NCBI RefSeq assembly: GCF_025643275.1
Contig: NZ_CP089977.1
Span: 1,170,001-1,202,000 of the forward strand
Origin: Moraxella nasicaprae
GTDB taxonomy: Bacteria > Pseudomonadota > Gammaproteobacteria > Pseudomonadales > Moraxellaceae
DNA length: 32,000 bases
Direction of reading: 5' to 3'
Shown here: positions 18,384 to 31,510 of the stretch, piece by piece
Position numbering within the stretch: the first letter of the stretch is position 1
How the letters are laid out: the number at the start of each line of letters is the position of its first letter
The notes under the pieces: generated by a model
The model's database searches: none
What the model saw: the letters and a program-made list of their open reading frames with translations, nothing else
What the model was told of the DNA's origin: nothing
Made by a program: the position numbers and the translations under genes

Positions 18384-18763
18384 TGAATATTTGATAATTT
18401 TATTATCAATTTACGACTAACAAATATCCAACAAAAATCAAAGGTCATTTTTTTGGGTTTATTATAATGATATTGGTCTGGGTAATAAGACAGTGTGTTT
18501 TTGTTACTTTGGGTAAACTTCATTGTCTTTCTTAGGGTAATTTGCTATTATGTATGGCATAGTCCTATTGTGGTTTTGGTGCTTAACTGGTTGTGCAGAG
18601 ATAGAAAGTAGTGACCTTGGTTGATTTTTAGAACAATGAATTGATGTAAAACCAATGGTTAATTAGTGCTTCTTGATCGGCTTGAAAATTCCTTATTGCG
18701 AGTGATATGGATTTTGTCAGACGCATAGAAATCACATCTCTTTTTTGCTTGGATAATTAGGTT

Positions 18764-19894
18764 ATGAAAAAAATTCTATTTGTAACAGGCACTCGTGCAG
18801 ACTTTGGCAAAATCAAAAGCCTGATGTCTGTAATTGAGCAATCATCACAGTTTGAATTGCATGTCTTAATAACAGGGATGCATATGATGAAACGCTATGG
18901 TTCAACCTACCTAGAAGTAAAAAAAGAAAATTATACCAATACCTATTTTACTTCCAATCAAAACGAAAACGAGCCAATGAGTTCGGTGCTGGGCAATACC
19001 ATTACCATTATTACTCGTCTTGTCAATGCCATTTCGCCAGATTTGATTGTGGTACACGGTGATAGATTGGAGGCGTTGGCAGGGGCAACTGTTGGGGCAT
19101 TGAGCCATATTCGTGTATGTCATATTGAAGGTGGAGAGCTGTCTGGTACCATTGACGACTCCATTCGCCATTCGGTTAGTAAATTATCTCACATTCATAT
19201 GGTGGCAAATGAAGAGGCTAAGGCTCGTTTGCTGCAATTAGGCGAAAACGAAAAAACGATCTTTATCATCGGCTCGCCAGACCTTGATGTGATGAATTCA
19301 CAAAAATTACCAACATTACAAGACGCAAAAGAGCATTATGGTATTGATTTTGAGGAATATTCAGTGGTAATGTTCCACCCTGTTACTAGTGAAGAACACG
19401 AAATCAAAAAGTACACCCAGAATTTATTCAAGGCATTGGAACAAAGCCAAAAAAATTATGTAGTGATTTATCCAAATAATGATACGGGTAGTGCCAAGAT
19501 TTTGAATGTTATTGCTGATTATGAAGAGCATCCGAATTTTAAATGCTATCCGTCTATCAATTTTGAACATTTTCTAACCTTATTAAAAAACGCCCAATTT
19601 ATTATTGGTAATTCTAGTGCGGGCGTGCGTGAAGCCCCATTTTATGGCTTGCCAAGTATCAACATTGGCACCCGCCAAAATGCCAGATTTCGTGGCAAAA
19701 CCGTCATTGATTGTGGCTATGACACCCAAGCGATTTTGTCCGCCATTGAGTGTGTGAATGATGTGCATACCGAAAAATCTACTTGGTTTGGCGATGGCAG
19801 CAGTACAGAAAAATTTGCCGAATTTGTTGCTAGCAAGGAATTTTGGGATATTCCTGTCCAAAAAGTCTTTGTGGACATCAATCAAGGAAGTTAG
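18764..19894 (+). CDS. neuC: UDP-N-acetylglucosamine 2-epimerase (hydrolysing), sialic acid pathway
   Basis: 376 aa. MKKILFVTGTRADFGKIKSLM...ITGMHMMKRYGSTY...HGDRLEALAGATVGAL...CHIEGGELSGTIDDSIRHSVSKLSHIH is collinear with NeuC/SiaA (CssA). Confidence 0.93.
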   Translation: MKKILFVTGTRADFGKIKSLMSVIEQSSQFELHVLITGMHMMKRYGSTYLEVKKENYTNTYFTSNQNENEPMSSVLGNTITIITRLVNAISPDLIVVHGDRLEALAGATVGALSHIRVCHIEGGELSGTIDDSIRHSVSKLSHIHMVANEEAKARLLQLGENEKTIFIIGSPDLDVMNSQKLPTLQDAKEHYGIDFEEYSVVMFHPVTSEEHEIKKYTQNLFKALEQSQKNYVVIYPNNDTGSAKILNVIADYEEHPNFKCYPSINFEHFLTLLKNAQFIIGNSSAGVREAPFYGLPSINIGTRQNARFRGKTVIDCGYDTQAILSAIECVNDVHTEKSTWFGDGSSTEKFAEFVASKEFWDIPVQKVFVDINQGS

Positions 19895-19896
19895 TT

Positions 19897-20571
19897 ATGT
19901 ATATCGCAGTCATTCCTGCTCGTGGCGGTTCAAAGGGTATTAAAGATAAAAATTTACAACTGGTGGGTGGTGTGTCGTTGGTGGCTCGTGCCATCATTGA
20001 AGCCAAAAAAGTAGATAAAATTAGCCAAATTATTGTCTCAACTGACAGTCAAAAAATCGCTGATGAAGCGGCAAAATATGGAGCAAATGTCCATTTTCGC
20101 AGTGAAAAAACTGCCAGCGATACCGCCAAAACCATTGAAGTGATTGAAGAGCTGGTGCAAGATATGAGTTTGCAGGACGATGTGTGTGTTTTGCTCCAAC
20201 CAACCAGCCCTTTGCGAATGAGCGAGCATATTTTGCAAACAATTGAATTATTTGAAAAAAATAATCATCGAGGCTCATCAATCACCGTAACACCAAGCGA
20301 ACATCACCCCTTCAAAATGATAATAATGGGCGATGATGGCAAGTATCAAGCGGTGCGAGCATTGGCAGACTTAGAAATGCCACGCCAAGCCTTGCCAGAG
20401 GCTTTTCGTATCAATGGAGCGGTTTATGTTAAACGCTTTACCGATTTGGTGGCTGAACAATCATTTTTTGGCAAGCCACAAGCCTTTGTCCAGATGGACG
20501 AGAAATCTTCAATAGACATTGATAACATCGCTGATTTGGTATTGGCAAATCAGTATTTTGAACAAATTTAG
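19897..20571 (+). CDS. neuA: N-acylneuraminate cytidylyltransferase (CMP-sialic acid synthetase)
   Basis: The track ORF starts at 19843, overlapping neuC. The ATG at 19897 gives MYIAVIPARGGSKGIKDKNL, the canonical NeuA/CssB N-terminus, and LLQPTSPLR is present. About 224 aa, the short (Neisseria-type) form without the esterase domain. Confidence 0.9.
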   Translation: MYIAVIPARGGSKGIKDKNLQLVGGVSLVARAIIEAKKVDKISQIIVSTDSQKIADEAAKYGANVHFRSEKTASDTAKTIEVIEELVQDMSLQDDVCVLLQPTSPLRMSEHILQTIELFEKNNHRGSSITVTPSEHHPFKMIIMGDDGKYQAVRALADLEMPRQALPEAFRINGAVYVKRFTDLVAEQSFFGKPQAFVQMDEKSSIDIDNIADLVLANQYFEQI

Positions 20572-30106: not shown

Positions 30107-30275
30107 TTTGTAGCCTTTGGTTGTGTTGTATGAATGAATAAGATATCACTAGGTTATTTTACTAAAGAAAGCAATGCTTTGGCAAGATTTTAGTCTATTA
30201 ATCTGTATTCTGTATTGAGACTTTATTGAATTTAAGGTTTTATAGCATGATAGAATGCGGTTTAATTTAATATTT

Positions 30276-30987
30276 GGGGCTGTACTAGAATAACACCCAT
30301 GTTATACTAGTTTTATGAAGATAACCCATTGTAAATTAAGTAAAAAAGTACAAAAAAGGTTGCTTGAATTTTTTGTACTTGAAGTTACTGCTCGTTCAGC
30401 AGCTGATTTATTGCAAATACACCCAAATTCAGCAGCTTTATTCTATCACAAAATCAGACTTGTGATAGAATATCATTTAGCTCAAGAAACCAAAGAGCTT
30501 TTTGATGGCGAGATTGAGTTAGATGAAAGTTATTTTGGTGGTATCCGTAAGGGCAAACGAGGTCGAGGGGCTGCTGGTAAAACAGCGGTATTTGGTCTTT
30601 TAAAGCGTAATGGTAAAGTCTTTGTTGTTGTCGTTAAAGATACTAAGACAAATATACTAATGCCCATTATTACAAGTAAAATCAAACCTGACAGCATTGT
30701 TTATACTGATAGCTACAAAAGTTGCAATGCTCTTGATGTGAGTGATTTTAAGCATTTTAGGATTAACCATTCCAAAGAATTTGCACAAGACCACAACCAC
30801 ATCAACGGTATTGAAAACTTCTGGTCGCAAGCCAAACGAGTGCTTAGAAAGTACAACGGCATTGACAAGAAAAACTTTCACTTATTCATCAAAGAATGTG
30901 AGTTTAGATTTAACTATGGCACACCATCTAATCAACTTAAAATATTGAGAAGGTGGTGTGGAGTTTAGGCTAATCTAGTACAGCCCC
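30276..30987 (+). mobile_element. intact IS1016-group insertion sequence (IS1595 family), 712 bp
   Basis: Perfect 14-bp terminal inverted repeats: GGGGCTGTACTAGA (30276-30289) and TCTAGTACAGCCCC (30974-30987). It is flanked by the 8-bp direct repeat TAATATTT (30268-30275 and 30988-30995). It has a single transposase ORF. Confidence 0.9.
30315..30968 (+). CDS. IS1595-family (IS1016-like) DDE transposase
   Basis: 217 aa. MKITHCKLSKKVQKRLLEFFVLEVTARSAADLL...GEIELDESYFGG.RKGKRGRGAAGKTAVFGLLKRNGKV...INHSKEF...HINGIENFWSQAKRVLRKYNGI is very close to my recollection of the Haemophilus/Neisseria IS1016 transposase. Confidence 0.9.
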   Translation: MKITHCKLSKKVQKRLLEFFVLEVTARSAADLLQIHPNSAALFYHKIRLVIEYHLAQETKELFDGEIELDESYFGGIRKGKRGRGAAGKTAVFGLLKRNGKVFVVVVKDTKTNILMPIITSKIKPDSIVYTDSYKSCNALDVSDFKHFRINHSKEFAQDHNHINGIENFWSQAKRVLRKYNGIDKKNFHLFIKECEFRFNYGTPSNQLKILRRWCGV

Positions 30988-31510
30988 TAATATTTTGCAA
31001 AAATACTTCTTGCAAAACTTATTTTGTGCTAAAATACTAAAATGAACAATGAGTTCTCCATATACTTATCTGATGGCAAGTTCAAATGCCTAATGGCATT
31101 CAACGAATTGTCTTTTAGTAGATGATTGGTTGGTGCAATTTTGTTTGCTCATCATTTTAAGGCGGATAAGGCTTTTGCTTATTCGCCAAAAATTCTGACC
31201 TTCTATCATTATCAAAACAAATACAGACAAGCTGTGAATACTTAAGCTAAAATTGTCCTAATGCAATCGCTGATCTGTTGTGATTCAGGGTTGTAGCCAA
31301 GGATTTGCATCAAAAACTGACATTTCTTTGGATGAGGATAATAAGATTGATATGAAGTATTTACAAATGTTGGATTTGGAATACTGCTCTGATATTTCGG
31401 TTAATTATCATTGTAGTGACAATCATAATGTTTTGCATTATGTGATAAGAATGTTGAATTTGAAAGATTGTATAATTTTGCTATTGATAGAATATAAAAG
31501 GTAAATTGAA

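Follow-up and report, generated by a model that had tools for sequence, protein, structure and literature searches.

A putative sialic-acid capsule locus of Moraxella nasicaprae with a neuCABES core, a conserved four-gene accessory module and no export genes nearby

Among the described capsule systems that of Moraxella bovis Epp63 is the nearest point of comparison for the locus presented here. This organism makes α2-8 polysialic acid (polySia), as demonstrated by nuclear magnetic resonance, serology and enzyme assay (PMC12797221, Vionnet et al. 2025), and its capsule genes are not assembled in a single block: a distance of 35.7 kb separates the subcluster neuCABES from the subcluster kpsMTEDCS, and neuD, kpsU and kpsF are scattered (PMC12797221). 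In Escherichia coli K1 the order is kpsFEDUCS-neuDBACES-kpsMT, and in Neisseria meningitidis serogroup C the biosynthetic region A (cssA-cssB-cssC-csc-cssE/oatC) is flanked by ctr and lip genes. A compact locus of the Pasteurellaceae type, with kpsC/S/T/M/E/D adjacent to the biosynthetic genes, is found in Otariodibacter oris (CP016604, L093). Meningococci of serogroups W and Y possess bifunctional polymerases in which a hexosyltransferase is coupled to a sialyltransferase (families GT4 and GT97 of CAZy). Here, we describe a gene cluster of the goat nasal bacterium Moraxella nasicaprae that was analyzed within a stretch of 32 kb, in the following called the window, where it covers positions 18384-30995 and is sandwiched by kdsD and galU. 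With a probability of roughly 0.68 we consider it to encode the polymer-specific (“region 2”-type) functions of a sialic-acid capsule system in which the polymer is O-acetylated and elaborated further, and in which export depends on an ABC transporter encoded by unlinked genes.

Family scans give the order neuC-neuA-neuB-neuE-neuS, followed by the genes of a GT2 glycosyltransferase, of a GT38-like protein of 391 residues and of a tetratricopeptide repeat (TPR) protein with a hydrolase domain, then by a convergent gene for a protein of 640 residues, an insertion sequence (IS) and galU (Table 1). An earlier note on this DNA, made from the letters alone, had described an AT-rich sialic-acid locus between kdsD/kpsF and galU in which neuC-neuA-neuB follow the order of the meningococcal cssA-cssB-cssC and precede polysialyltransferase-type genes, as expected for a polymer of N-acetylneuraminic acid (Neu5Ac). 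This description was borne out by family models and base composition. The 12.6 kb of the cluster have a GC content of 35.9% compared with 46-50% in the flanking kdsD, ettA and galU, which is compatible with horizontal acquisition; NeuC and NeuB exceed their equivalog cut-offs, NeuA falls into PF02348, and three open reading frames (ORFs) after neuB exceed the cut-off of PF07388 (176, 35.4 and 74.8 bits).

Thus all genes for the synthesis of CMP-Neu5Ac are present, and family membership shows neuC, neuB and neuA to encode its predicted makers. NeuB scores only 229.6 bits with the PseI model in comparison with 400.6 bits for TIGR03569; it has 83% identity to NeuB of Psychrobacter and 91% to that of the metagenome-derived cluster L008, and NeuC has 71-72% identity to its Psychrobacter counterparts. 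NeuA is a short form in which the esterase domain known from its E. coli counterpart is missing, and it matches residues 6-217 of the K1 protein only (33% identity); its start is most likely the ATG at 19897, the mechanically derived ORF opening at a TTG at 19843. The product of the fourth gene matches NeuE of E. coli UTI89 with 28.5% identity over 298 residues (E 9e-27), and since that protein itself carries the RefSeq label DUF6716, the first five genes are to be read as neuC-A-B-E-S. All five proteins found their E. coli K1 counterparts in a tblastn search with UTI89 sequences (28-34% identity for NeuB/A/C/E/S). NeuS, for which the start annotated at NCBI lies six codons downstream of 22720, aligns with the polysialyltransferase of Mannheimia haemolytica (MhPST, structure 5WCN; E 1.5e-37) including the motifs VEEG, LHPK and TSS. 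In MhPST E153 of the D/E-D/E-G motif acts as catalytic base, H291 of the HP motif as catalytic acid, and serine or threonine residues are the phosphate ligands (PMC5517516); E-E-G, H-P-K and the S/T motif are retained both in NeuS and in the 640-residue protein. The locus therefore contains NeuE together with a GT38 polysialyltransferase that has the D/E-D/E-G and HP motifs. For neuE and neuS the ratio of nonsynonymous to synonymous substitutions (dN/dS) is 0.11-0.21 if compared to the related locus L001. A search with blastn for neuB in E. coli genomes gave no match, and a scan of a collection of genome contigs with NeuS found no relative. Both NeuS and the 640-residue protein match NCBI proteins of M. 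nasicaprae with 100% identity, in agreement with the origin of the window from this species.

The identities to the Psychrobacter loci L003 and L007 and to L008 are mosaic: 83-91% for NeuB and 71-79% for NeuC, but 41-45% for NeuS and 39-48% for NeuE. This pattern points to separate histories of the CMP-Neu5Ac cassette and of the transferases.

With M. bovis the locus shares the genus, the order neuC-A-B-E-S, the separation of neu from kps genes (PMC12797221) and an insertion in NeuS relative to other bacterial polysialyltransferases. In contrast, the M. bovis locus comprises by its published description neuCABES only (PMC12797221), to which M. nasicaprae adds four genes, an IS and a pseudogene. 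The likeness to E. coli K1 consists in homologues of NeuB/A/C/E/S, a KpsF-like neighbour and the same catalytic motifs of NeuS; M. nasicaprae differs by the missing flanking regions 1 and 3, the missing neuD, the NeuA without esterase domain, another gene order and the four extra genes. With the serogroup C region A it has in common the order neuC-neuA-neuB, a GT38 polymerase and a downstream gene for an α/β-hydrolase-fold protein, whereas the meningococcal region is bordered by the ctr and lip genes mentioned above.

The earlier note had counted six further biosynthetic ORFs in place of one polymerase. Six ORFs do follow neuB, but NeuE and NeuS among them are canonical, so that four are extra: those for the GT2 enzyme, the 391-residue protein, the TPR-hydrolase and the 640-residue protein. 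The GT2 enzyme with its degenerate GT38 partner and the O-acetyltransferase candidate among them, as well as a pseudogene behind the IS, are the most unusual content of the locus and had escaped the earlier note. In L001 (86-93% identity) and L008 (48-66%) the four genes are found intact and in the same order, and the set is conserved in only three Moraxella-like lineages, i.e. the window, L001 and L008. Compared with L001 their dN/dS is 0.04-0.10 at dS 0.6-0.8, and across the six genes from neuE to the 640-residue protein gene it is 0.04-0.21. Judged from these sequence comparisons, the four extra genes are a conserved and selected module. In L008 all genes are found on one strand in the order neuC-A-B-E-S, GT2, GT38-like, TPR, a gene for 244 residues, the 653-residue orthologue of the 640-residue protein and a gene for 282 residues. 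No paper was found on a capsule of M. nasicaprae, nor on a GT2-GT38 pair or on TPR-hydrolase proteins in sialic-acid loci. The core belongs to a known kind of system; new is the accessory module, with a function that is predicted.

The first protein of this module has 493 residues, with a GT-A domain behind an N-terminal helical domain, and keeps the motifs YDDCStDdT and QLDADE, i.e. the DD and DxD motifs of nucleotide binding; in four homologues YDDCS and LDADE do not vary. Its profile matches SunS (7MSP, E 4.8e-4), and its gene has a dN/dS of 0.044 against L001. Single-sequence searches of the PDB with this protein and with the 391-residue protein gave noise only. The latter belongs to a clade apart from NeuS, and although its homology to PF07388 is still detectable it has neither the catalytic glutamate nor the catalytic histidine of GT38: at the positions of D/E-D/E-G and HP it shows NNG and PD, as does its L001 counterpart. 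The corresponding protein of L008 has EDG and LD, that of the metagenomic contig L049 (57% GC) EDG and HP. Within the Moraxella-like lineage the GT38 partner has thus lost its catalytic residues stepwise. Loss of the motifs together with purifying selection (dN/dS 0.096 against L001) marks the 391-residue protein as a GT38-like pseudo-glycosyltransferase, which probably acts as non-catalytic partner of the GT2 enzyme.

Both genes are adjacent in four lineages (window, L001, L008 and L049). In L049, where the identities are 46% for the GT2 enzyme and 34% for the GT38-like protein, a kpsC-like gene lies upstream and no Neu homologue was detected on the 6.4-kb contig. Moreover, the alphaproteobacterium Polycladidibacter stylochi encodes a protein of 931 residues (P0056) in which a GT2 homologue (40% identity over 240 residues) is fused to a GT38 domain with intact DEG and HP. 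This domain scores 20.6 bits with the hidden Markov model (HMM) of the 391-residue clade in comparison with 7.3 bits with the NeuS HMM. By the Rosetta-stone argument such a fusion indicates that both the GT2 enzyme and the GT38-like neighbour act as one unit. P0056 was the sole match of a protein search with a concatenated alignment of three proteins, which did not recover the proteins of the locus itself. Its gene (6797-9592 of L048) is located at the end of a 9.7-kb contig near integrase, helicase and transposase genes and thus seems to be carried by a mobile element; in the available 9.7 kb no neu or kps genes are visible.

The C-terminal part of the 640-residue protein represents the third GT38 domain of the locus. 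E387-E388-G389, H530-P531-K532 and S581 are among 22 positions that are invariant when it is aligned with 30 sequences of the NeuS family, and the NeuS HMM gives 114 bits. Its AlphaFold2 model (predicted local distance difference test, pLDDT, about 75-94 in the GT38 domain) has 5WCN and 5WC6 as top Foldseek matches (E 5e-18; 4.7e-18 for 5WCN), so that an MhPST-like GT-B fold with the catalytic glutamate and histidine and the S/T ligands is predicted. Over its first 240 residues or so the 640-residue protein shows homology both to the 244-residue protein of L008 and to the TPR protein's hydrolase domain; this region is without the Asp/His part and has an altered nucleophile elbow, and therefore is probably non-catalytic. 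The 640-residue protein falls into a family of just three clusters at 90% identity among 5.8 billion proteins. An intact NeuS-like paralogue of this kind is found exactly in those lineages where the partner of the GT2 enzyme lost its histidine, which suggests that the 640-residue protein may have functionally replaced the degenerate GT38 partner. In L008 the degenerate hydrolase-like domain also stands alone, as the 244-residue protein (8826-9560) encoded before the 653-residue GT38 protein; this gene is absent in M. nasicaprae. Within one type of cluster the hydrolase-like domain thus occurs free, fused to TPRs and fused to GT38.

The convergent orientation of the last gene was correctly seen in the earlier note, which had taken it as a departure from the textbook loci; it is a local inversion. 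The orthologue in L008 (P0055, 653 residues, 48% identity) is co-directional with the operon, and L001 (86% identity) shows the same inverted orientation as the window, hence the convergence is specific for this lineage. No inverted repeats flank the inverted gene (28184-30106), and the ends of the inversion are unmarked by repeats.

For the TPR protein, an AlphaFold2 model computed with the family alignment (pLDDT 95.7, predicted template modelling score 0.92) shows a TPR solenoid in residues 1-180 and, behind it, an α/β-hydrolase fold in which S272 is positioned between the strand 265-271 and the helix 273-285, i.e. at a nucleophile elbow. Together with D361 and H384 it forms a putative Ser-Asp-His triad. 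A HMMER search retrieved 134 representatives of this family, of which about 20 combine TPRs with the C-terminal domain and the others are stand-alone proteins of about 270 residues; named members such as those from Psychrobacter glacincola and Otariodibacter oris are labelled just “tetratricopeptide repeat protein”. In an alignment of 130 members S272, K273 and D361 are invariant among the aligned residues, G270 is kept in 122 of 125 and H384 in 102 of 105, and an SPQ motif as well as E364 are highly conserved. The best PDB match of a profile of the stand-alone members is the O-acetyltransferase CsaC/SacC of N. meningitidis serogroup A (6YUO, E 4.1e-4), with the identical nucleophile elbow GSSKGGxGALLL. 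CsaC is an acetyltransferase of the α/β-hydrolase fold in which the catalytic S114 is followed by K115 (PMC7501274), and CssE/OatC of serogroup C has this fold and activity as well (PMC7387560, PMC7501274). A TPR fusion is not described for CsaC, and the relationship of both is remote. No meningococcal protein was present among the named family members that were looked up. The triad of OatC, S286/D376/H399, has a spacing like that of S272/D361/H384, which is taken as a lead only.

In O. oris the compact locus kpsC-kpsS/kpsT-kpsM-kpsE-kpsD/neuA-polyST-neuE has a single extra region-2 gene, and this encodes the orthologue of the TPR-hydrolase (P0070, 30% identity, same architecture). The locus shares with M. 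nasicaprae the polysialyltransferase and NeuE and differs by the missing GT2 enzyme, degenerate GT38 and second GT38. Stand-alone relatives sit after neuD in polySia loci of Psychrobacter. On the basis of fold, elbow, triad and neighbourhood, the TPR-hydrolase is probably a polySia-associated acyl-, namely O-acetyltransferase.

Concerning export, all 14 Kps and Neu proteins of E. coli K1 (UTI89) were compared by tblastn with the six reading frames of the window. Besides NeuC/A/B/E/S only the KpsF-like gene was recovered; KpsM, E, D, C, S and U gave no match anywhere in the 32 kb, and KpsT matched solely the ABC-F translation factor EttA. No kpsMTED or kpsCS genes are contiguous with the biosynthetic genes in this range. 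The earlier note was thus right in listing no export genes, but it had considered this as an anomaly and had concluded that the export machinery must be unlinked or unconventional. Unlinked kps genes are the documented state in Moraxella (PMC12797221), and in 32 Psychrobacter loci KpsM/T/E/D were not found within 10 kb of the capsule-specific genes, either. From the split locus of M. bovis and these 32 loci it follows that unlinked export is the norm in this family, that no unconventional exporter has to be postulated and, already from M. bovis, that contiguity does not define the capsule family in Moraxellaceae. By analogy, kpsMTED and kpsCS of M. nasicaprae would be located elsewhere in the genome.

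In the Psychrobacter loci neuCABES-neuD is followed by a single-domain KpsC-like gene and, further on, by a nucleotidyltransferase gene (PF00483), which comes right after the KpsC-like gene in L007 and farther downstream in L003. The PF05159 protein beside these neu clusters (L003 13998-14993, L007 12844-13821 and L016-L047) has about 330 residues. It matches both halves of KpsC and not KpsS, so it can be considered as a single-domain KpsC-like Kdo (3-deoxy-D-manno-octulosonate) transferase that is encoded apart from KpsM/T/E/D. A genome scan with two of these PF05159 proteins gave Psychrobacter matches only.

Taken as a capsule system, the cluster would have been acquired horizontally at the kdsD-galU site and would work as follows. 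NeuC, NeuB and NeuA would provide CMP-Neu5Ac, from which NeuE and the GT38 enzyme NeuS, judged by homology and catalytic motifs, would build a polySia chain on a lipid-linked Kdo primer made by KpsS and KpsC. The TPR-hydrolase, as a relative of CsaC, may then O-acetylate the polymer. The GT2 enzyme, its dead GT38 partner and the 640-residue enzyme may elaborate it, for instance by a second type of linkage, by di-sialyl priming or by the addition of hexose or N-acetylhexosamine (HexNAc), and this is the least certain step of the explanation. Export by kpsMTED and priming by kpsCS would be accomplished from genes located elsewhere, as in M. bovis Epp63. The convergent last gene, the IS and a hydrolase pseudogene would have arisen recently by local rearrangement of an ancestral cluster with co-directional genes.

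Several points weigh against this reading. NeuD is absent from the locus. The match of the family profile to CsaC is short (about 50 residues, E 4e-4), the assignment otherwise resting on fold and triad conservation, and in a Foldseek search the model of the TPR-hydrolase retrieved TPR proteins and α/β-hydrolase esterases but not CsaC among the top 50 matches; the protein may be an esterase rather than a transferase. The closest solved relatives of the GT2 enzyme, SunS and GmaR, glycosylate peptides or proteins and not polysaccharides. Finally, the 32 kb of M. nasicaprae DNA gave no KpsM/T/E/D/C/S homologue, and the export route is one that we infer.

Regarding the product, the earlier note had expected something more complex than a homopolymer, and with four conserved extra genes this is rated as plausible. 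The main product might even be a heteropolymer of sialic acid and hexose or HexNAc resembling that of meningococcal serogroups W and Y, made by the GT2 enzyme and the 640-residue GT38 protein in place of the dead 391-residue partner, and NeuS and NeuE would only prime it or make a second polymer. The adjacency of the pair in four lineages, the P. stylochi fusion with DEG and HP, built as one would expect for a bifunctional polymerase of heteropolymers, the occurrence of the pair beside a kpsC-like gene on a contig where no Neu homologue was detected (L049, 6.4 kb), and the exact co-occurrence of the intact NeuS-like paralogue with the loss of the partner's histidine all speak in its favour. 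As in the W and Y polymerases, a hexosyltransferase would be coupled to a sialyltransferase both in P0056 and in the pair, whereas in M. nasicaprae the two are split and the GT38 half is catalytically degenerate. We nevertheless regard a heteropolymer as the main product as rather unlikely, since NeuE and NeuS have intact motifs and are under purifying selection, the pair of them suffices for α2-8 polySia in M. bovis (PMC12797221), and the locus contains no dedicated nucleotide-sugar gene besides neuCAB. A related and still tentative, rather doubtful idea is that the GT2 enzyme and the divergent GT38 protein constitute an undescribed two-component polymerase for heteropolymers (bifunctional in its fused form), that the Moraxella partner became a scaffold while a NeuS-derived paralogue with a dead hydrolase-like domain took over the chemistry, and that the product is a new capsule.

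At the other extreme stands plain α2-8 (or α2-9) polySia, the four extra genes being dispensable passengers or the decaying remnant of another ancestral cluster. Signs of erosion are indeed visible in the dead motifs of the 391-residue protein, the hydrolase pseudogene, the IS, the inverted gene and the loss of the 244-residue gene of L008, and neuCABES alone gives polySia in M. bovis (PMC12797221). However, all four ORFs are intact, their dN/dS is 0.04-0.10 in a comparison at dS 0.6-0.8, the set is kept in relatives with identities as low as 48%, and the hydrolase triad is preserved as are the motifs of the 640-residue protein, which makes passengers or remnants quite improbable. A genome without Kps export, where the enzymes would sialylate lipooligosaccharide or another cell-bound acceptor or the product would leave by another route, would agree with the lack of export and KpsC/S genes in 32 kb. 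This would be a great surprise: NeuE together with NeuS is known only from those polySia capsules that depend on an ABC transporter (PMC5517516), the family as a rule has split loci, and relatives of the accessory genes are found beside kpsC/kpsS/kpsT/kpsM in O. oris and beside the kpsC-like gene in L049. On balance, the O-acetylated and further elaborated sialic-acid capsule with unlinked export remains the best explanation.

Table 1. Position and basis of assignment of the features in and around the capsule locus of Moraxella nasicaprae (numbering of the window)
Feature	Position	Strand	Basis
kdsD/kpsF-type arabinose-5-phosphate isomerase, core flank, Kdo precursor supply	17421-18383	+	TIGR00393 330.5 bits
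AT-rich leader/promoter region 5' of neuC	18384-18763	+	31.6% GC
neuC, hydrolysing UDP-GlcNAc 2-epimerase	18764-19894	+	TIGR03568 NeuC_NnaA 428.9 bits (cut-off 235.9)
neuA, CMP-Neu5Ac synthetase	19897-20571	+	PF02348 E 7.6e-26
neuB, N-acetylneuraminate synthase	20593-21645	+	TIGR03569 400.6 bits (cut-off 399.65)
neuE homologue (DUF6716), proposed polySia priming/accessory protein	21649-22719	+	PF20471 32.7 bits (cut-off 27)
neuS, GT38 polysialyltransferase	22720-24096	+	PF07388 176 bits
GT2 (GT-A) glycosyltransferase, 493 residues, N-terminal helical domain of about 190 residues	24115-25596	+	PF00535 30.6 bits (cut-off 23.3)
Divergent GT38-like protein, 391 residues	25599-26774	+	PF07388 35.4 bits (cut-off 23.3)
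TPR (1-180) and CsaC-like α/β-hydrolase domain (195-449), putative capsule O-acetyltransferase	26795-28144	+	profile, AlphaFold2
Bidirectional intrinsic terminator between convergent genes	28145-28180		perfect 16-bp stem, 4-nt loop, A/T runs on both sides
640-residue protein, N-terminal degenerate α/β-hydrolase-like and C-terminal NeuS-like GT38 domain	28184-30106	-	PF07388 74.8 bits
IS1595-family IS, 712 bp (30276-30987), with duplications	30268-30995	+	transposase NF033547 155.9 bits
Pseudogene remnant of a second α/β-hydrolase gene, between IS and galU	31132-31435	+	tblastn
galU, 5' part, core flank	31511-32000	+	GalU models, E about 1e-52 (163 residues available)

At its right end the cluster adjoins an IS whose DDE transposase, terminal inverted repeats and 8-bp target duplication place it in the IS1595 family. 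It has 79% DNA identity to ISEc69 and about 64% to multicopy elements of N. gonorrhoeae, and by the ISfinder groupings would belong to the IS1016 subgroup. The earlier note had seen an IS1016-type element and had pointed to the IS that brackets the cap locus of Haemophilus influenzae. An IS does abut the locus, but the duplication TAATATTT is intact on both sides (30268-30275 and 30988-30995), so this is a simple insertion and neither a rearrangement junction nor part of a bracket as in H. influenzae; the idea of a compound transposon was rejected because the element has its own intact duplication TAATATTT. Behind the IS, tblastn revealed residues 164-200 (84%) and 214-265 (60%) of the 282-residue protein of L008 in two different frames. 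The intact form of this protein, with a GASAGG elbow, is encoded by the last gene of the L008 cluster. As nothing but a frameshifted C-terminal piece of this gene is left in the window, the ancestral cluster was longer and has been eroded here.

At the left end, the kdsD product exceeds the cut-off (203.7 bits) of the KpsF/GutQ subfamily model TIGR00393, scores 400.6 bits with the KdsD model, which is under the cut-off of 505, and has 45% identity to KpsF of E. coli K1; the GC content of its gene is 49.8%. The leader before neuC contains a single weak sigma-70-like match (18523-18551), a consensus match alone, and no Rfam family matched it. In agreement with the earlier note the ops octamer GGCGGTAG was not found in these 380 bp, which means little outside enterobacteria. 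The octamer occurs three times inside the core genes pabC, purC and ettA (1924, 6432 and 12700), with 0.22 copies expected in the window and no shuffle out of 100 reaching three; no copy is near the capsule locus.

The core genes upstream of the cluster are pabC, mltG, tmk, dapA, purC, parC, phhB and ettA, and two AT-rich islets are inserted among them. The islet at 13980-15880 (about 31% GC), between ettA and kdsD and adjoining the capsule block, carries a PARIS-type anti-phage defence pair consisting of an AriA-like ATPase of 378 residues (PADLOC AriA E 7.8e-26) and an AriB-like protein of 254 residues (E 1.5e-10). The other islet at 10901-12243 (29% GC), between phhB and ettA, contains three small ORFs (105, 148 and 171 residues), for which no family match was obtained except one faint match to an inner-membrane protein.

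Capsules of polySia imitate the polySia of the host; they are classic virulence antigens and a problem for vaccines, and to our knowledge few bacterial producers have been recognised. M. nasicaprae would be a further candidate producer, living as a respiratory commensal or pathogen of small ruminants. With plain polySia as product, the locus would add an ordinary case to a known type of capsule. A product other than this would mean a new sialic-acid polymer together with new enzymes for the chemo-enzymatic synthesis of glycans, and with a two-component polymerase the capsule would be new, for example a block, branched or alternating O-acetylated polymer, and not a mimic of the K1 or group B type. 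Priming of polySia may require an enzyme besides NeuE (PMC5517516), and the second GT38 enzyme of 640 residues could bear on how the chains are primed. The locus unites three GT38 paralogues that differ in their functional state, a candidate for a new family of O-acetyltransferases and a GT2-GT38 pair that is also known as a fusion.

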